Below are positions 28,379-60,373 of a DNA stretch of 64,000 bases, one piece after another; position 1 is the stretch's first letter, and every line of letters begins with the position of its first letter. The notes under the pieces were generated by a model. The model had not been told where the DNA came from. It saw only the letters and a program-made list of their open reading frames with translations, and did not search any database. Source of the DNA: Escherichia coli O157:H7 (GTDB taxonomy: Bacteria; Pseudomonadota; Gammaproteobacteria; Enterobacterales; Enterobacteriaceae). A program made the position numbers and the translations under genes. The stretch lies in NCBI RefSeq assembly GCF_013167455.1, contig NZ_CP038328.1, one strand, 5' to 3'.

Positions 28379-29740
<1,362 letters not shown>

Positions 29741-29879
29741 AACGTGAGGAAATACCTGGATTTTTCCTGGTTATTTTGCCGCAGGTCAGCGTATCGTGAA
29801 CATCTTTTCCAGTGTTCAGTATGGTGCCTTGCACGGTAATTATGTCACTGGTTATTAACCAATTTTTCCTGGGGGATAA

Positions 29880-31019
29880 ATGAGCGCGGGAAGCCCAAAA
29901 TTCACCGTTCGCCGCATTGCGGCTTTGTCACTGGTTTCGCTATGGCTGGCAGGCTGTTCTGACACTTCAAATCCACCGGCACCGGTCAGCTCCGTTAATG
30001 GCAATGCGCCTGCACATACCAATTCTGGTATGTTGATTACGCCGCCGCCGAAAATGGGGACGACGTCTACAGCGCAGCAACCGCAAATTCAGCCGGTGCA
30101 GCAGCCACAAATTCAGGCTACTCAACAACCGCAAATCCAGCCAGTGCAGCCAGTAGCTCAGCAGCCGGTACAGATGGAAAACGGACGCATCGTCTATAAC
30201 CGTCAGTATGGGAACATTCCGAAAGGCAGTTATAGCGGCAGTACCTATACCGTGAAAAAAGGCGACACGCTTTTCTATATCGCCTGGATTACTGGCAACG
30301 ATTTCCGTGACCTTGCTCAGCGCAACAATATTCAGGCACCATACGCGCTGAACGTCGGTCAGACCTTACAGGTGGGTAATGCTTCCGGTACGCCAATCAC
30401 TGGCGGAAATGCCATTACCCAGGCCGACGCAGCAGAGCAAGGAGTTGTGATCAAGCCTGCACAAAATTCCACCGTTGCTGTTGCGTCGCAACCGACAATT
30501 ACGTATTCTGAGTCTTCGGGTGAACAGAGTGCTAACAAAATGTTGCCGAACAACAAGCCAACTGCGACCACGGTCACAGCGCCTGTAACGGTACCAACAG
30601 CAAGCACAACCGAGCCGACTGTCAGCAGTACATCAACCAGTACGCCTATCTCCACCTGGCGCTGGCCGACTGAGGGCAAAGTGATCGAAACCTTTGGCGC
30701 TTCTGAGGGGGGCAACAAGGGGATTGATATCGCAGGCAGCAAAGGACAGGCAATTATCGCGACCGCAGATGGCCGTGTTGTTTATGCCGGTAACGCGCTG
30801 CGCGGCTACGGTAATCTGATTATCATCAAACATAATGATGATTACCTGAGTGCCTACGCCCATAACGACACAATGCTGGTCCGGGAACAACAAGAAGTGA
30901 AGGCGGGGCAAAAAATAGCAACCATGGGTAGCACCGGAACCAGTTCAACACGCTTGCATTTTGAAATTCGTTACAAGGGGAAATCCGTAAACCCGCTGCG
31001 TTATTTGCCGCAGCGATAA
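29880..31019 (+). CDS. nlpD: lipoprotein NlpD (LysM, degenerate M23 peptidase)
   Basis: 379-aa ORF; lipobox LAGCS; PQIQ repeat tract. Confidence 0.9.
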
Positions 31020-31081
31020 ATCGGCGGAACCAGGCTTTTGCTTGAATGTTCCGTCAAGGGATCACGGGTAGGAGCCACCTT

Positions 31082-32074
31082 ATGAGTCAGAATACGCTGA
31101 AAGTTCATGATTTAAATGAAGATGCGGAATTTGATGAGAACGGAGTTGAGGTTTTTGACGAAAAGGCCTTAGTAGAAGAGGAACCCAGTGATAACGATTT
31201 GGCCGAAGAGGAACTGTTATCGCAGGGAGCCACACAGCGTGTGTTGGACGCGACTCAGCTTTACCTTGGTGAGATTGGTTATTCACCACTGTTAACGGCC
31301 GAAGAAGAAGTTTATTTTGCGCGTCGCGCACTGCGTGGAGATGTCGCCTCTCGCCGCCGGATGATCGAGAGTAACTTGCGTCTGGTGGTAAAAATTGCCC
31401 GCCGTTATGGCAATCGTGGTCTGGCGTTGCTGGACCTTATCGAAGAGGGCAACCTGGGGCTGATCCGTGCGGTAGAGAAGTTTGACCCGGAACGTGGTTT
31501 CCGCTTCTCAACATACGCAACCTGGTGGATTCGCCAGACGATTGAACGGGCGATTATGAACCAAACCCGTACTATTCGTTTGCCGATTCACATCGTAAAG
31601 GAGCTGAACGTTTACCTGCGAACAGCACGTGAGTTGTCCCATAAGCTGGACCATGAACCAAGTGCGGAAGAGATCGCAGAGCAACTGGATAAGCCAGTTG
31701 ATGACGTCAGCCGTATGCTTCGTCTTAACGAGCGCATTACCTCGGTAGACACCCCGCTGGGTGGTGATTCCGAAAAAGCGTTGCTGGACATCCTGGCCGA
31801 TGAAAAAGAGAACGGTCCGGAAGATACCACGCAAGATGACGATATGAAGCAGAGCATCGTCAAATGGCTGTTCGAGCTGAACGCCAAACAGCGTGAAGTA
31901 CTGGCACGTCGATTCGGTTTGCTGGGGTACGAAGCGGCAACACTGGAAGATGTAGGTCGTGAAATTGGCCTCACCCGTGAACGTGTTCGCCAGATTCAGG
32001 TTGAAGGCCTGCGCCGTTTGCGCGAAATCCTGCAAACGCAGGGGCTGAATATCGAAGCGCTGTTCCGCGAGTAA
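31082..32074 (+). CDS. rpoS: RNA polymerase sigma factor RpoS (sigma38)
   Basis: ORF 31046..32074; ATG 31082 ([14 protein letters not shown]) giving 330 aa; codon 33 GAG. Confidence 0.95.
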
Positions 32075-32090
32075 GTAAGCATCTGTCAGA

Positions 32091-32126
32091 AAGGCCAGTC
32101 TCAAGCGAGGCTGGCCTTTTTCTTTT
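32091..32126 (+). terminator. rho-independent terminator of rpoS
   Basis: aaaggccagtctcaagcgaggctggcc stem then TTTTTCTTTT. Confidence 0.85.
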
Positions 32127-32193
32127 GTTTGGGAAGCTTGTGTTTTTGTCGCCTGGATAAGACACGTCAGCGTCCTACCCGGCAATTTGCATC

Positions 32194-32634
32194 CTATGTG
32201 TTCATCATCTTGCGCACCAGCTGCACAAACAGCTCCTGCTCTTCTGCACTCAAACGCCCCAAAAATTCCTCATCCACGCTGTCACCAATCGGTATCGCCG
32301 CAGCAAGTATCTTTTCTCCTTCGGCAGTCAGCCAGACAAAGCGACGCCGCTTGTCAGCGGCATCATGTTCACGTCTGACTAAGCCACGATTCTCCATTCT
32401 TGCCAACATTTCTGCCAACGTTGCTTTGGTGCTGACTGCTGCTTCTATCAGTGCCACCTGTTCGATACCAGGCTTATCAGCAATGGCGCGCATCACCGCA
32501 TACTGTGGTTTGGTCAGGTCAGGTAACTCGTGCTGCCAGCGAGCCGTGTGCTGCTGAAAAAGCTGTCGTAACTGATGGAACGCTTTATTTCGTAACGTCA
32601 TGTAAACTCCGGGCAAACTATCTGCCGCTATCAT
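32194..32634 (-). CDS. MarR/SlyA-family transcriptional regulator
   Basis: 146-aa ORF (alternative start at 32601); winged-helix-type sequence; divergent from decarboxylase genes. Confidence 0.75.
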   Translation of the reverse strand: MIAADSLPGVYMTLRNKAFHQLRQLFQQHTARWQHELPDLTKPQYAVMRAIADKPGIEQVALIEAAVSTKATLAEMLARMENRGLVRREHDAADKRRRFVWLTAEGEKILAAAIPIGDSVDEEFLGRLSAEEQELFVQLVRKMMNT

Positions 32635-32717
32635 AGCGGTTTTTCAGTGACGAAGGGGATGTTGTTACTTTTCAGTGCTTGCCGCAATGAGAACAGAGGC
32701 GTATTTTAATAATAATG

Positions 32718-32731
32718 TTCGTATACGAACA
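32718..32731. promoter_or_regulatory. perfect 14-bp palindrome GTTCGTATACGAAC, candidate operator of the MarR-like regulator
   Basis: Self-complementary 14-mer 17 bp upstream of ATG 32748, in the divergent promoter region. Confidence 0.5.
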
Positions 32732-32747
32732 ATTAAGAGAGTAAGCA

Positions 32748-33341
32748 ATGAAACTGATCGTCGGGATGACAGGGGCTACCGGTGCGCCTCTTGGTGTGGC
32801 ATTACTGCAAGCGCTGCGGGAGATGCCGAATGTCGAGACTCATCTGGTGATGTCGAAGTGGGCGAAAACCACCATTGAACTGGAAACGCCTTACAGCGCC
32901 CGCGATGTTGCTGCCCTCGCTGACTTCAGCCATAACCCGGCGGATCAGGCGGCGACCATCTCCTCAGGTTCCTTTCGTACAGACGGCATGATCGTTATTC
33001 CGTGCAGTATGAAAACGCTCGCCGGTATCCGCGCTGGTTACGCTGATGGCCTGGTAGGGCGCGCGGCGGACGTCGTGCTTAAAGAAGGCCGCAAACTGGT
33101 GCTGGTGCCGCGTGAAATGCCGCTTAGCACCATCCATCTCGAAAATATGCTCGCACTTTCACGCATGGGCGTGGCGATGGTGCCGCCGATGCCTGCCTTT
33201 TATAACCATCCCGAAACGGTAGATGACATTGTCCACCACGTGGTAGCCCGCGTGCTGGATCAATTTGGCCTTGAACATCCCTACGCCAGGCGCTGGCAAG
33301 GATTGCCGCAGGCCCGGAATTTTTCTCAGGAGAATGAATAA
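32748..33341 (+). CDS. UbiX-type flavin prenyltransferase (Pad1-like)
   Basis: 197-aa ORF; MKLIVGMTGATGA N-terminus. Confidence 0.85.
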   Translation: MKLIVGMTGATGAPLGVALLQALREMPNVETHLVMSKWAKTTIELETPYSARDVAALADFSHNPADQAATISSGSFRTDGMIVIPCSMKTLAGIRAGYADGLVGRAADVVLKEGRKLVLVPREMPLSTIHLENMLALSRMGVAMVPPMPAFYNHPETVDDIVHHVVARVLDQFGLEHPYARRWQGLPQARNFSQENE

Positions 33342-34768
33342 TGGCATTTGATGATTTACGCAGCTTTTTACAGGCGCTTGATGACCACGGCCAGTTACTG
33401 AAAATCAGCGAAGAGGTGAACGCGGAACCGGATCTGGCTGCCGCTGCCAACGCCACCGGGCGTATCGGCGATGGTGCACCGGCGCTGTGGTTTGATAATA
33501 TTCGCGGTTTTACCGATGCCCGCGTGGCGATGAATACCATCGGTTCCTGGCAGAACCACGCGATTTCCTTGGGCCTGCCGCCAAACACCCCGGTTAAAAA
33601 ACAGATTGATGAGTTTATCCGCCGCTGGGATAACTTCCCGATCGCCCCGGAGCGCCGCGCCAATCCAGCCTGGGCGCAGAACACCGTCGATGGTGACGAG
33701 ATTAATCTGTTCGATATCCTGCCGCTGTTTCGTTTAAACGACGGTGATGGCGGTTTCTATCTCGACAAAGCGTGCGTGGTTTCCCGCGATCCGCTCGACC
33801 CGGATAACTTCGGCAAGCAGAACGTCGGTATCTACCGCATGGAAGTGAAGGGCAAGCGTAAGCTCGGCCTGCAACCGGTGCCGATGCACGATATCGCCCT
33901 GCATCTGCATAAAGCGGAAGAGCGCGGTGAAGATCTGCCGATTGCCATCACCCTGGGTAACGATCCGATCATCACCCTTATGGGCGCCACGCCGCTGAAA
34001 TACGATCAGTCTGAGTATGAAATGGCAGGCGCGCTGCGCGAAAGCCCGTACCCGATCGCCACCGCGCCATTGACTGGTTTTGATGTGCCGTGGGGTTCAG
34101 AAGTGATCCTCGAAGGGGTTATCGAAAGCCGCAAACGCGAAATCGAAGGGCCGTTCGGTGAGTTTACCGGGCACTACTCCGGCGGGCGTAACATGACCGT
34201 GGTGCGTATCGATAAAGTCTCTTACCGCACCAGGCCGATTTTCGAATCGCTGTACCTCGGCATGCCGTGGACCGAAATCGACTACCTGATGGGGCCAGCC
34301 ACCTGTGTGCCGCTGTATCAACAACTGAAAGCCGAGTTCCCGGAAGTGCAGGCGGTAAACGCCATGTACACCCACGGCCTGCTGGCGATTATCTCCACCA
34401 AAAAACGCTACGGCGGCTTTGCCCGCGCGGTGGGCCTGCGTGCGATGACCACGCCGCACGGTCTGGGCTACGTAAAGATGGTGATTATGGTCGATGAAGA
34501 CGTTGACCCGTTCAACCTGCCGCAGGTGATGTGGGCGCTCTCCTCGAAAGTAAATCCGGCAGGGGATTTGGTGCAGTTGCCGAATATGTCCGTGCTGGAA
34601 CTCGACCCTGGCTCAAGCCCGGCGGGGATCACCGACAAGCTGATTATCGACGCCACCACGCCTGTCGCCCCGGACAACCGTGGTCACTACAGCCAGCCGG
34701 TGGTGGATTTGCCGGAAACCAAAGCCTGGGCTGAAAAACTGACCGCTATGCTGGCCGCACGTAAATAA
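33341..34768 (+). CDS. UbiD-family (prFMN-dependent) decarboxylase, phenolic acid decarboxylase C-subunit-like
   Basis: 475-aa ORF overlapping UbiX-like stop. Confidence 0.85.
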   Translation: MAFDDLRSFLQALDDHGQLLKISEEVNAEPDLAAAANATGRIGDGAPALWFDNIRGFTDARVAMNTIGSWQNHAISLGLPPNTPVKKQIDEFIRRWDNFPIAPERRANPAWAQNTVDGDEINLFDILPLFRLNDGDGGFYLDKACVVSRDPLDPDNFGKQNVGIYRMEVKGKRKLGLQPVPMHDIALHLHKAEERGEDLPIAITLGNDPIITLMGATPLKYDQSEYEMAGALRESPYPIATAPLTGFDVPWGSEVILEGVIESRKREIEGPFGEFTGHYSGGRNMTVVRIDKVSYRTRPIFESLYLGMPWTEIDYLMGPATCVPLYQQLKAEFPEVQAVNAMYTHGLLAIISTKKRYGGFARAVGLRAMTTPHGLGYVKMVIMVDEDVDPFNLPQVMWALSSKVNPAGDLVQLPNMSVLELDPGSSPAGITDKLIIDATTPVAPDNRGHYSQPVVDLPETKAWAEKLTAMLAARK

Positions 34769-34778
34769 GGAGAACAAG

Positions 34779-35015
34779 ATGATTTGTCCACGTTGTGCCG
34801 ATGAACAGATTGAAGTGATGGCGAAATCGCCGGTGAAAGATGTCTGGACGGTATATCAGTGCCAGCATTGCCTTTATACCTGGCGCGATACCGAACCGCT
34901 GCGCCGTACCAGCCGCGAACATTATCCCGAAGCGTTCCGCATGACGCAGAAAGATATTGATGACGCGCCAATGGTGCCGAGCATCCCGCCGCTGCTGGCG
35001 GAAGGTAAGCGCTAA
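34779..35015 (+). CDS. small zinc-ribbon subunit of phenolic acid decarboxylase (D-subunit-like)
   Basis: 78-aa ORF with CPRC...CQHC pairs directly after the UbiD-like gene. Confidence 0.7.
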   Translation: MICPRCADEQIEVMAKSPVKDVWTVYQCQHCLYTWRDTEPLRRTSREHYPEAFRMTQKDIDDAPMVPSIPPLLAEGKR

Positions 35016-35023
35016 TAAAAAGT

Positions 35024-35051
35024 GCCGGGTAGTGGCTTTGCTTTACCCGGC
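35024..35051. terminator. hairpin between convergent decarboxylase operon and pphB
   Basis: gccgggta...tacccggc stem with A/T-rich flanks. Confidence 0.5.
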
Positions 35052-35055
35052 CTCA

Positions 35056-35712
35056 TTACTTTATTTTATAAAATGACAGCCGCCCGCTTTTCGGCGATCC
35101 GGTATCAATATAAATCTGGTTAGCGAACGTCTGAATGTTATCAAACATCATATGTCCAAATATAAAATAATCAGCGCCGTTTATTTGTTGTAACTCGCCA
35201 TTAAGCGATTTCTGCACACGATCAACAGGCCAGAGTAATTCGCTCTCCGCTATTTCTTTACCAAAGAGATATTCACTCCCCGGATAATCTGCATGTGCGA
35301 TGACATATTTTATGTTGTCGTTAGTGATTTCAATAATATGTGGAAGGTGATGGAATTTCAGCAACAGATCTGTAGCTTCTTTTTGCTCTGAATCATTTAA
35401 ATCGAAAAACCAGTCACCACCGCTGGCAAGCCACATATTGCCATCGCCGGTCGCGAACGCATCCAGCGCCATTGCTTCGTGGTTGCCTTTAACGGAGATA
35501 AACCAGGGCTGGTTTAGCAGGCGCAGGACGTTAAGACTCTCCGGCCCACGATCAATATTATCGCCGACAGAAATAAGTAAGTCGGTTTCGGGGAAAAAAG
35601 AGAGTTGATGTAAGCGGGATTGTAATAACTGATATTCACCATGAATATCACCAACGACCCATATATGGCGATAGTGATGGGTATTGATTTTTTGATAGCG
35701 TGTAGATGGCAT
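35056..35712 (-). CDS. pphB: serine/threonine protein phosphatase 2
   Basis: 218-aa ORF; metallophosphatase motifs (GDIHG, GDNIDRG, GNHE). Confidence 0.85.
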   Translation of the reverse strand: MPSTRYQKINTHHYRHIWVVGDIHGEYQLLQSRLHQLSFFPETDLLISVGDNIDRGPESLNVLRLLNQPWFISVKGNHEAMALDAFATGDGNMWLASGGDWFFDLNDSEQKEATDLLLKFHHLPHIIEITNDNIKYVIAHADYPGSEYLFGKEIAESELLWPVDRVQKSLNGELQQINGADYFIFGHMMFDNIQTFANQIYIDTGSPKSGRLSFYKIK

Positions 35713-35817
35713 GGTTTTACCCTGTAAAATAAGCTTTCCTATTATACAGGGTATTTTTATTTGATTCGTCAGTTATCGTTAATATTCCCGATAGCAAAAG
35801 ACTATCGGGAATTATTA

Positions 35818-38379
35818 TTACACCAGACTCTTCAGGCGATAAATCCATTCCAGCGCCTGACGCGGGGTGAGTGAATCCGGATCGAGGTTTTCCAGTGCCT
35901 CGACTGCAGGCGAGGTTTCTTCCGGTACGGACAGCAAAGACATTTGCGTACCATCCACTTGCGTAGCGGCGGCGTTCGGCGAAATGCTTTCCAGCTCACG
36001 CAGTTTTTGCCGTGCGCGCTTAATAACCTCTTTTGGCACGCCGGCCAGAGCTGCAACCGCCAGGCCGTAGCTTTTGCTCGCCGCGCCATCCTGCACGCTA
36101 TGCATAAAGGCAATGGTGTCGCCGTGCTCCAGTGCATCGAGATGCACGTTGGCGACGCCTTCCATTTTCTCCGGTAACTGGGTCAGCTCGAAATAGTGGG
36201 TGGCAAACAGCGTCAACGCCTTAATCTTATTCGCCAGATTTTCCGCGCACGCCCACGCCAGCGACAGACCATCGTAAGTGGACGTTCCGCGCCCAATCTC
36301 ATCCATCAGCACCAGACTGTACTCGGTGGCGTTATGCAGAATATTAGCGGTTTCGGTCATCTCCACCATAAAGGTTGAACGCCCGGAAGCCAGATCATCC
36401 GCTGCCCCTACGCGGGTAAAGATACGGTCAATCGGGCCAATCTCGACTTTTTGCGCCGGTACGTAGCTGCCGATATAGGCCATCAGCGCAATCAGTGCGG
36501 TCTGGCGCATATAGGTACTTTTACCGCCCATGTTCGGACCGGTAATAATCAACATCCGGCGCTGCGGTGACAGATTCAGCGGGTTGGCGATAAATGGCTC
36601 GTTCAGCACCTGTTCAACCACCGGATGGCGGCCTTCGGTAATGCGAATGCCCGGTTTATCAATGAAGGTCGGGCAGGTGTAGTTCAGGGTATAGGCCCGT
36701 TCCGCCAGGTTCACCAGCACGTCGAGTTCCGCCAGCGCGCTCGCGCTCTGTTGCAACGCTTCCAGATGCGGCAACAGCAGGTCGAACAGCTCTTCATAAA
36801 GCTGTTTTTCCAGAGCCAGTGCTTTGCCTTTTGAAGTGAGGACTTTATCTTCGTACTCTTTTAGCTCTGGAATGATGTAGCGCTCGGCGTTTTTCAGCGT
36901 CTGGCGACGCATATAGTTGATAGGTGCCAGATGGCTTTGCCCACGGCTGATTTGAATGTAGTAGCCGTGCACCGCATTAAAGCCAACTTTTAGCGTGTCC
37001 AGGCCGGTACGTTCACGCTCGCGGACTTCCAGACGCTCCAGATAATCGGTCGCGCCGTCAGCCAGCGCGCGCCACTCATCCAGCTCTTCGTTATAGCCTG
37101 ATGCGATAACACCACCGTCGCGTACCAGCACCGGCGGTGTGTCGATGATTGCTCGCTCCAGCAGATCGCGCAGCTCGGCAAACTCGCCCATCTTCTCACG
37201 TAGCGCCTGTACTGGTGCACTATCAACAGTTTCTAACTGCGCACGCAGCTCCGGCAGTTGCTGGAAAGCGTGACGCATACGGGCCAGATCGCGTGGGCGA
37301 GCGGTACGCAACGCCAGACGCGCCAGAATACGTTCCAGGTCGCCGACCTGACGTAGTACCGGCTGCAACTCGGCGGTGAAATCCTGCAATGCGCCAATAG
37401 TTTGCTGGCGCTCAAGCAACACGCGGGTATCGCGCACTGGCATATGCAGCCAGCGTTTCAGCATACGGCTGCCCATCGGCGTGACGGTGCAGTCGAGCAC
37501 AGAAGCCAGCGTATTTTCCGCACCACCCGCCAGGTTCTGGGTGATTTCCAGATTACGACGCGTCGCGGCATCCATAATGATGCTGTCCTGCTCACGTTCC
37601 ATGGTGATGGAACGAATATGCGGCAGAGTCGTACGTTGGGTATCTTTCGCATACTGCAACAGACAACCGGCAGCACAAAGTCCGCGCGGCGCGTTCTCGA
37701 CGCCAAAACCGACCAGATCGCGGGTCCCAAATTGCAGATTCAACTGCTGGCGCGCGGTGTCGATTTCAAACTCCCACAGCGGGCGACGGCGCAGGCCGCG
37801 ACGGCCTTCAATTAACGACATTTCAGCAAAATCTTCTGCATACAGCAGTTCCGCAGGATTAGTGCGTTGCAGTTCTGCCGCCATCGTTTCCCGGTCAGCC
37901 GGTTCGCTCAGGCGAAAACGACCGGAACTGATATCCAGCGTCGCGTAGCCGAAACCTTTGCTGTCCTGCCAGATAGCCGCCAGCAGGTTGTCCTGACGCT
38001 CCTGCAACAGGGCTTCATCGCTGATGGTGCCTGGCGTAACGATACGCACAACTTTGCGCTCAACCGGACCTTTGCTGGTCGCCGGATCGCCAATTTGTTC
38101 GCAGATGGCAACGGACTCGCCCTGATTCACCAGTTTGGCGAGGTAGTTTTCCACCGCATGGTAGGGAATCCCCGCCATCGGGATCGGCTCTCCCGCCGAA
38201 GCACCGCGTTTGGTCAGTGAAATATCCAGCAGTTGCGACGCGCGTTTTGCGTCGTCATAAAACAGTTCATAAAAATCACCCATCCGGTAAAACAGCAGGA
38301 TCTCGGGATGCTGGGCTTTCAGCTTGAGATACTGCTGCATCATGGGCGTATGGGCGTCGAAATTTTCTATTGCACTCAT
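35818..38379 (-). CDS. mutS: DNA mismatch repair protein MutS
   Basis: 853-aa ORF; Walker [10 protein letters not shown]. Confidence 0.97.
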
Positions 38380-38619
38380 GGGGTTATGTCCGGTTCCCTG
38401 ATATTAAATGGGGTGTGATGGTTTTTATTTTCGTTGTAATCACATAAGGCGCACATGATACCGGAGTTAATCATTTCAGGGGAAGAAGCGAACGGCGAGT
38501 TCTTGATGCTGGTTCCGGGAAAGATGCTGTTTTGCAGCTTTTGCGTGATGCTTATGAAGCAAGTACGCAAAATTGTATCGGTTGGCTAACCCTTCTTCTT
38601 TAGAGTCATAGTGCCCTTT

Positions 38620-38648
38620 AAGATTAAGTTGTAATATAAATGCATCTT
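38620..38648. promoter_or_regulatory. candidate NsrR operator upstream of ygbA
   Basis: aagattaagttgtaatataaatgcatctt; right half AAATGCATCTT fits the NsrR half-site as recalled. Confidence 0.45.
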
Positions 38649-38665
38649 AATGAGGTGGAGGCAGT

Positions 38666-39019
38666 ATGTCCGGCAAGCGTATCTCTCGTGAAAAACTGAC
38701 GATTAAAAAAATGATCGATCTTTATCAAGCGAAATGCCCGCAGGCGTCAGCGGAGCCGGAGCATTACGAGGCGTTGTTTGTTTACGCGCAAAAGCGGCTG
38801 GATAAATGTGTGTTCGGCGAAGAGAAACCAGCCTGTAAGCAGTGTCCGGTGCACTGTTACCAGCCTGCAAAGCGTGAAGAGATGAAACAGATTATGCGTT
38901 GGGCCGGGCCGAGAATGCTGTGGCGTCATCCGATCTTAACCGTGCGTCATCTCATCGATGACAAGTGTCCGGTGCCAGAACTGCCGGAAAAATATCGTCC
39001 GAAAAAACCTCGTGAATAG
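38666..39019 (+). CDS. ygbA: YgbA (nitrosative-stress-associated small protein)
   Basis: 117-aa ORF with GAGGTGGAGG upstream; synteny. Confidence 0.8.
   Translation: MSGKRISREKLTIKKMIDLYQAKCPQASAEPEHYEALFVYAQKRLDKCVFGEEKPACKQCPVHCYQPAKREEMKQIMRWAGPRMLWRHPILTVRHLIDDKCPVPELPEKYRPKKPRE

Positions 39020-60288: not shown

Positions 60289-60373
<85 letters not shown>

Follow-up and report, generated by a model that had tools for sequence, protein, structure and literature searches.

The stretch of DNA analysed here (64,000 nucleotides of Escherichia coli O157:H7, contig NZ_CP038328.1, referred to below as the window) contains, between rpoS and mutS, the hosA-ecdBCD cassette: a gene for a MarR-family regulator, hosA, and, divergent from it, the three genes ecdB, ecdC, and ecdD. 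In sequence comparison the interval matches E. coli O157:H7 chromosomes at 100% identity, and in an identical O157:H7 genome RefSeq labels the products 'non-oxidative hydroxyarylic acid decarboxylases subunit B/C/D' and 'MarR family winged helix-turn-helix transcriptional regulator'. An initial annotation of the window had described a MarR/SlyA-like regulator divergent from a three-gene operon between rpoS and pphB/mutS, and all four open reading frames (ORFs) lie where it placed them. We are highly confident that the locus is the hosA-ecdBCD system of O157:H7, a 4-hydroxybenzoate-inducible, non-oxidative, and reversible hydroxyarylic acid decarboxylase system. The identities of the parts, the operon structure, the operator, and the conservation were computed; the literature supplies the ligand response, the substrates, and the D-subunit role. 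The genes, the structure of the B subunit, the structure and ligand of HosA, the operator, the substrates, and the polymorphism of the interval are already known from publications, and the RefSeq naming is correct. New here is a comparative statement, that throughout the family the cassette is the ancestral content of this site and evolves under strong purifying selection, which contradicts the Shigella claim of a preprint discussed below.

The B, C, and D genes are adjacent, in the same orientation and in that order. The ecdB stop and the ecdC start share one base (TAATG, 33339-33343), the gap between ecdC and ecdD is 10 nt, and Shine-Dalgarno sequences precede both downstream genes (AGGAGAA before ecdC, GGAGAA before ecdD). 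This tight packing, together with the Shine-Dalgarno sequences of both downstream genes, indicates that ecdB, ecdC, and ecdD form one operon. The coordinates of the cassette and of its flanks are collected in Table 1.

Table 1. Features of the hosA-ecdBCD cassette and its flanks in the window; CDS, coding sequence; prFMN, prenylated flavin mononucleotide.
Feature	Position	Strand	Remarks
hosA	32194-32601	-	ORF open to 32634 (146 aa); RefSeq 408-nt CDS, 135 aa
Candidate sigma-70-like promoter of ecdBCD	32687-32716	+	ATGAGA, 18-nt spacer, AATAAT; consensus scan, 9/12 matches
HosA operator, perfect 16-bp palindrome TGTTCGTATACGAACA	32716-32731		inverted-repeat search; core GTTCGTATACGAAC at 32717-32730
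ecdB (= pad1, kpdB, hadB)	32748-33341	+	197 aa; UbiX-family flavin prenyltransferase, prFMN maker
ecdC (= yclC, kpdC, hadC)	33341-34768	+	475 aa; prFMN-dependent UbiD-family decarboxylase, catalytic subunit
ecdD	34779-35015	+	78-aa zinc-ribbon subunit with four Cys; by analogy, putative allosteric activator of EcdC
rpoS	31082-32074	+	left flank, convergent with hosA; RefSeq CDS 993 nt
rpoS intrinsic terminator	32088-32121	+	15-bp stem, then T run
GC-rich hairpin, ecdD/pphB junction	35021-35053		fold energy -18.4 kcal/mol, z-score -2.5
pphB, serine/threonine phosphatase	35056-35712	-	right flank; NCBIfam PRK09968 472.6 bits, cutoff 332
mutS	35818-38379	-	right flank; 853-aa ORF, RefSeq annotation

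The subunits were assigned with curated NCBIfam models, each with its own cutoff. EcdB scores 311 bits against VdcB (cutoff 290), EcdC 790.5 bits against VdcC (cutoff 650), and EcdD 121 bits against VdcD (cutoff 30). These scores, which lie far above chance level, and the four retained cysteines bear out the predicted UbiX-like prenyltransferase, UbiD-like decarboxylase, and small zinc-ribbon subunit, and the B, C, and D matches together with the gene order confirm the phenolic-acid decarboxylase BCD architecture. EcdC falls far below the cutoff of the UbiD equivalog (173.7 bits versus 788). Its best match among solved structures is the VdcC chain of Sedimentibacter hydroxybenzoicus (7ae4, E 2e-160), with E. 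coli UbiD reaching only 9e-47. The sequence comparisons support a grouping of the UbiD-like protein with the phenolic-acid decarboxylases VdcC/BsdC/EcdC, apart from ubiquinone UbiD; the opposite grouping, which the initial annotation had named as contrary to its reading, did not occur.

EcdB aligns with PDB 1SBZ ('Probable aromatic acid decarboxylase') over its full length, residues 1-197 of both chains (E 3e-130), which is consistent with the two being the same protein; we take 1SBZ to be the Pad1 structure of E. coli O157:H7. EcdD matches ShdD in 7ae4 (E 3.4e-11). In a residue mapping from alignments, EcdC is 54% identical to the Sedimentibacter VdcC (ShVdcC, 7ae4) and EcdD is ~41% identical to the D subunit. 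ShVdcC residues E273, E278, H349, and Y381 are kept in EcdC as E269, E274, H345, and Y377, and C3, C6, C28, and C31 of EcdD, which make up two CXXC zinc knuckles, align with the Zn ligands of ShVdcD.

Residues 12-146 of the MarR-family ORF are identical at 132 of 135 positions to crystallised HosA (PDB 8aga and six further entries, E 1.3e-83). The crystallised protein is the HosA of enteropathogenic E. coli (EPEC) E2348/69, according to the preprint that describes it, and the O157:H7 and EPEC proteins differ at 3 residues. The hosA product is not SlyA proper, with 29.9 bits against the SlyA equivalog (cutoff 120). Residue 1 of crystallised HosA aligns to Met12 of the ORF. Because the RefSeq CDS and the crystallised chain both begin there, the true start is most likely the ATG at 32601, 11 codons inside the ORF; the regulator span of 32194-32634 in the ORF list is correct as an ORF and probably too long at its 5' end. 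A second palindrome, CCGCTAT-c-ATAGCGG followed by TTTTT on the + strand, lies at 32625-32639, just upstream of the annotated hosA start, and appears terminator-like in the scan. It could be a second regulatory site or an insulator of the divergent promoters.

The divergent region between hosA (32601) and ecdB spans 146 bp, and the operator palindrome ends 17 bp before the ecdB ATG. Its 14-bp core is identical to a sequence in the HosA d-PAGE (polyacrylamide gel electrophoresis) template oligonucleotide T_H (PMC6261655, supplementary table S1), and no other site in the window matches the core at up to two mismatches. For the comparison with other species, a scan of one genome per species gave 353 EcdC relatives, and the loci of the best 80 of these 353 (89-100% protein identity) were compared by tblastn of the window proteins; the counts below for synteny, operators, and ecdB loss refer to these 80 loci, which carry L-numbers as labels. 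The motif GTTCG-N4-CGAAC, with at most two mismatches, lies upstream of the operon in 77 of the 80 loci, and its variation affects mainly the four middle bases and to some extent the first one or two. In loci that lack ecdB, the operator has moved with hosA and lies in front of ecdC instead.

The -10 hexamer of the candidate promoter abuts the operator, and the promoter match ends at 32716, which would place the operator at or just past the transcription start. This predicted position agrees with a published roadblock statement: HosA binds downstream of the start and acts by roadblock, according to a preprint that summarises Roy & Ranjan 2016 (bioRxiv 10.1101/2024.04.24.590444). HosA represses the operon and itself, and 4-hydroxybenzoate frees HosA from DNA, as PMC13355054 and the same preprint summarise Roy & Ranjan 2016. 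Release of HosA by 4-hydroxybenzoate was seen in an electrophoretic mobility shift assay, and isothermal titration calorimetry gave a Kd of 4.7 uM for this ligand (PMC6261655). Moreover, the O157:H7 regulator gave a specific response to 4-hydroxybenzoate of up to 38-fold in an in vivo reporter circuit (PMC13355054).

Recombinant O157:H7 EcdCD is listed among the 4-hydroxybenzoate decarboxylases in Table 2 of a review, which cites Lupa 2005 for it (PMC6644310). The best EcdCD substrate in that table heads every row of the class, and the second is the only one given for the vanillate decarboxylase of Streptomyces; the two are read as 4-hydroxybenzoate (best) and vanillate. The initial annotation was fair in holding that the sequence by itself does not reveal the substrate; both the substrates and the effector, however, have been worked out by experiment. 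Gut Enterobacteriaceae with KpdBCD homologues turn 4-hydroxybenzoate into phenol in culture (PMC6424909), and microbiome work on phenyl sulfate took the O157:H7 protein as its 'Had' reference (PMC13230720). As for the subunits, VdcC shows no activity unless VdcD is present. VdcD has a Zn ribbon, binds beside the loops bearing the Glu-Arg-Glu triad, and acts as an allosteric activator, and the prFMN for VdcCD comes from a UbiX-type enzyme (PMC8379154).

From these parts the following mechanism is proposed. A HosA dimer would bind the operator core, which overlaps the start of the ecdB transcription unit, so that both the operon and hosA would be repressed; 4-hydroxybenzoate would bind HosA, which would then leave the DNA. 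EcdB, of the UbiX type, would prenylate reduced flavin mononucleotide to prFMN, and EcdC, of the UbiD type, would use prFMN to form phenol from 4-hydroxybenzoate and guaiacol from vanillate. The zinc-ribbon subunit EcdD would bind EcdC and fix the catalytic Glu-Arg-Glu loops, a role shown on the Sedimentibacter and Bacillus homologues. We infer that the purpose is detoxification or turnover of plant- or tyrosine-derived phenolic acids in the anaerobic gut.

Several points weigh against this interpretation. What is said of substrate and regulation draws on publications, in part on the near-identical proteins of UMN026 and E2348/69, and the structure and D-subunit mechanism come from more distant homologues (54% identity). 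Of the Glu-Arg-Glu triad, the mapping onto EcdC covers the two Glu residues. The ecdBCD promoter, at 9 of 12 consensus positions, is a weak prediction, and Table 2 of PMC6644310 gives compound numbers, where the identification of 49a with 4-hydroxybenzoate and of 57a with vanillate follows the row headings and not the figure. HosA has also been tied to motility in EPEC (Ferrandiz 2005, as cited by a later paper), and it may have targets outside ecdBCD.

Within E. coli, the cassette (at least 80% coverage) is present in 2380 of 5426 complete genomes, always on the chromosome and in none of the 5426 on a plasmid; in 801 genomes it is contiguous with pphB as in the window. The interval had been expected to be polymorphic with other genes in K-12, and K-12 indeed carries ygbI-ygbN there. 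The junctions were rebuilt by blastn of the window against E2348/69 and K-12; the K-12 comparison record is an rpoS::kan knockout, of which the terminator-to-ygbN junction and the right side are usable. The rpoS terminator is the final sequence common to K-12 before the interval types part. Homology to K-12 stops at 32120, from where K-12 runs straight into the ygbN terminator, the cassette being absent. The window is collinear with EPEC E2348/69 from nlpD to 35027 at 96.9% identity and resumes at pphB. The 6077-bp ygbN-ygbI block of E2348/69 is missing in the window, which has 29 bp (35028-35056) instead. This 29-bp stretch is specific to the O157-type interval, and the hairpin at 35021-35053 spans the junction; it is probably a terminator serving both convergent genes, ecdD and pphB.

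A '2.9-kb' rpoS-mutS polymorphism was reportedly described as early as 1999-2000, by LeClerc (1999) and Herbelin (2000). PMC4209514, which also mentions a '2.9-kb insert', assigns pattern I to O157:H7/EHEC1 (EHEC, enterohaemorrhagic E. coli), pattern IV to EPEC, and pattern II to K-12, and names the genes kpdB, kpdC, kpdD, and slyA (with kpdR as a synonym in its Table 1); the names in PMC5491219 are hosA, pad1, and yclC. The window corresponds to pattern I, without o454/ygbN and with mutS near yclC. In Escherichia sp. E1V33 and in Pseudocitrobacter, pphB also lies between ecdD and mutS, and the ecdD-mutS gaps of 803-1688 bp are too small for the ygb block. Because of these pphB-only gaps, the O157-type arrangement may be the older one and ygbI-N an insertion. 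As a further observation on the left flank, rpoS is annotated as frameshifted in an E2348/69 'variety 2' assembly (L001, 7888-8881).

In other species, both rpoS and mutS flank the cassette in 43 of the 80 loci, nearly all from Enterobacteriaceae, and at least one of the two flanks is present in 56. Genera with the flanked cassette include Citrobacter, Salmonella, Klebsiella, Enterobacter, Kluyvera, Leclercia, Lelliottia, Kosakonia, Atlantibacter, Franconibacter, Mangrovibacter, Pseudocitrobacter, Phytobacter, Cedecea, and Pluralibacter. Between the stops of ecdD and mutS the median distance is 124 bp, and pphB is found in only five loci. The cassette stands elsewhere in the genome in Pantoea, Erwinia, Rahnella, Rouxiella, Chimaeribacter, and Vibrio salinus. 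It is inverted in Salmonella enterica subsp. arizonae and diarizonae and in Phytobacter (L016, L019, L021, L045, L047), so that ecdD faces the rpoS 3' end and hosA faces mutS. Twelve species have operons without ecdB, in which hosA stands beside ecdC (L039, L051, L052, L061, L063, L066, L071, L072, L074, L077, L081, L082) and the operator lies 38-181 bp upstream of ecdC; these operons presumably draw prFMN from the housekeeping UbiX.

Three further observations concern individual groups. Enterobacter, the Klebsiella oxytoca group, Leclercia, and Lelliottia carry ~2.6 kb between rpoS and hosA that is absent from E. coli (L014, L017, L018, L027, L031, L033, L041, L043, L059; for example L017 6244-8332). 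It encodes a 404-aa efflux-type transporter of the major facilitator superfamily (MFS) between two small ORFs without a family match, all on the hosA strand, and the MFS protein may transport phenolic acids or phenol and be regulated together with hosA. EcdC proteins 89-91% identical to that of E. coli occur in genomes labelled as an alphaproteobacterium, 'Martelella alba' BGMRC 2031 (L069), and as Vibrio salinus (L076), which points to a mislabelled or reclassified record or to inter-order transfer. A metagenome-assembled genome labelled Citrobacter sp. HRGM_Genome_0066 has a 5967-bp contig (L003) with 100% identical EcdC and an E. coli-type pphB-mutS flank, as well as a second, Citrobacter-like copy (L008); the L003 contig probably stems from E. 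coli DNA contaminating the bin.

Synonymous divergence (dS) and the ratio of nonsynonymous to synonymous divergence (dN/dS) were calculated by the Nei-Gojobori method. Against most other genera, ecdC has a dS of ~0.7-1.2 and a dN/dS of ~0.02-0.04, and mutS a dS of 1.0-1.7. Protein identity to Klebsiella and Enterobacter is 96-97% for EcdC, 93% for MutS, ~75% for NlpD, and 72-80% for HosA. EcdC is under strong purifying selection and is at least as constrained as MutS. Recent transfer was considered as the cause of the high EcdC identity across genera and rejected for most genera at these dS values, with Pseudocitrobacter as the exception. Between P. faecalis (L007) and E. coli, dS is 0.36 for ecdC and 0.21 for ecdD, as against 1.1 for ecdB, 0.81 for mutS, and 0.71 for rpoS, with hosA saturated, and in two other Pseudocitrobacter loci (L005, L006) pphB is 87-90% identical. 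This suggests that an ecdC-ecdD(-pphB) segment was exchanged by recombination between Escherichia and Pseudocitrobacter. Between O157:H7 and E2348/69 (29880-38379), dS rises from 0.03 for nlpD through 0.07 for ecdB, 0.12 for hosA, and 0.17 for ecdC to 0.26 for mutS; such uneven values within the species are consistent with the reported recombination mosaic near mutS.

The occurrence of the rpoS/mutS flanks across Enterobacteriaceae argues that the cassette is ancestral there and that E. coli lineages without it have lost it. As far as gene order and divergence indicate, the cassette is the ancestral occupant of the Enterobacteriaceae rpoS-mutS interval, lost in K-12 and B2 lineages, and not an acquired island. 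Calling it an accessory module therefore holds within E. coli and fails across Enterobacteriaceae, where it is conserved ancestral content. The contrary view, in which the cassette arrived recently as a genomic island, for example from Shigella dysenteriae into pathogenic E. coli, and is a pathotype-specific accessory trait, can point to its patchy presence in E. coli (fewer than half of the complete genomes, and K-12 without it), to a G+C content of 57-58% across the cassette versus ~52% for rpoS and nlpD, to an interval known as a recombination mosaic with ecdC and mutS far more divergent than nlpD between O157:H7 and E2348/69, and to a preprint that claims horizontal acquisition of hosA from S. 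dysenteriae (bioRxiv 10.1101/2024.04.24.590444). However, the same genes stand at the same site (nlpD-rpoS-hosA/ecdBCD-mutS) in the 43 species, ecdC, mutS, and rpoS have dS values of similar magnitude, and the composition is not foreign to the region, since mutS itself has 56.5% G+C. Neither the ORF list nor the RefSeq annotation has an integrase, insertion sequence element, or tRNA at the cassette borders, and no E. coli genome has a plasmid copy. Moreover, Shigella is phylogenetically E. coli, so the 97.6% identity to S. dysenteriae is uninformative on transfer. Synteny, dS, and operator conservation together argue against the preprint's claim, and a recent island origin is highly improbable.

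Other functions have to be weighed against an inducible detoxifying decarboxylase. Such a role could be too modest if the cassette were a near-core function of Enterobacteriaceae and not an optional detoxification module: it alone is ancestral in the interval, EcdC combines the identity given above with a dN/dS of ~0.02, and the operator is almost invariant. We consider this unlikely; if true, the conserved role could be control of the free pool of 4-hydroxybenzoate, a ubiquinone precursor, or the supply of phenol to the anaerobic gut as a metabolite that serves in competition or acts on the host, and the recurrent losses from K-12-like and B2 E. coli would then count as adaptive and call for explanation. 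The reverse reaction could instead be the physiological one, with phenol or guaiacol carboxylated to 4-hydroxybenzoate or vanillate at the high CO2 of the anaerobic gut, for example to feed ubiquinone or menaquinone precursors. The enzyme class is reversible, and PMC6644310 marks the reverse reaction as observed for the O157:H7 enzyme substrates (Table 2, footnote e). Yet the inducer is the acid and not phenol, as would be expected of a decarboxylase for catabolism or detoxification, Enterobacteriaceae with the homologous operon yield phenol from 4-hydroxybenzoate (PMC6424909), and E. coli, as is generally known, obtains 4-hydroxybenzoate from chorismate via UbiC; a carboxylating role is very unlikely. 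There is next to no chance that EcdB and EcdC are a spare UbiX/UbiD pair forming a redundant ubiquinone-biosynthesis module. The proteins share the superfamilies, and EcdB could in principle provide prFMN to UbiD; UbiX-type enzymes are said, in work attributed to Lin et al. 2015 and White et al. 2015, to be isofunctional prFMN synthases. Against this stand the low UbiD and high VdcC scores of EcdC, its reliance on a D subunit that UbiD lacks, the repression of the operon unless free 4-hydroxybenzoate is present, and the 12 species without ecdB, in which the B gene is dispensable.

Around the cassette, the ORF list begins rpoS at an in-frame upstream ATG at 31046, as against the RefSeq start at 31082. 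A degenerate repetitive extragenic palindromic (REP)-like element, GCCTGGATAAGACACGTCAGCGTCCTACCCGGCA, lies at 32151-32184 between the rpoS terminator and the hosA stop; E2348/69 has a better REP copy at the matching position, and clean copies occur in the window at 10672-10704 and 60339-60371. An Rfam scan of 29000-39000 matched no RNA family.

The locus adds little as a discovery, and its practical interest is known. HosA is in use as a 4-hydroxybenzoate biosensor, and the interval serves the typing of E. coli lineages. The operon is one route to phenol in gut Enterobacteriaceae, and the uraemic toxin phenyl sulfate derives from phenol.

The closest relatives in the literature, EcdBCD (Pad1/YclC/EcdD) with HosA from E. 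coli O157:H7, EPEC E2348/69, and UMN026, represent the same locus as that in the window, with no difference of substance. The orthologues in Klebsiella, Enterobacter, and Salmonella have the same gene order, hosA partner, and operator, and their EcdC proteins are 96-97% identical; in contrast to the window, their ecdD mostly abuts mutS, without pphB. Their preferred substrate is also 4-hydroxybenzoate, as listed in PMC6644310 (Table 2). VdcCD/ShdCD of Sedimentibacter hydroxybenzoicus (7ae4, 7ae5, 7ae7) and BsdBCD/VdcBCD of Bacillus subtilis belong to the same family and have the same subunit make-up as EcdBCD, and 4-hydroxybenzoate and vanillate are likewise their substrates (PMC8379154). The larger pocket of the B. 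subtilis enzyme (V179 and L419 of VdcC, V67 of VdcD) has been tied to syringate turnover (PMC8379154). The pocket of EcdCD is of this B. subtilis type, with V180 and L419 in the C subunit and V66 in the D subunit, whereas Sedimentibacter has L182, M423, and I60; some syringate activity of EcdCD is a reasonable prediction by analogy. Two of the three reported C-D salt-bridge positions of ShVdcCD differ in EcdCD, D173 being replaced by G in EcdC and R12 by E in EcdD. With UbiD and UbiX of ubiquinone biosynthesis, EcdC and EcdB have the superfamilies and the prFMN chemistry in common. Unlike UbiD, however, EcdC needs a D subunit, and its substrates are free, non-prenylated hydroxybenzoates.

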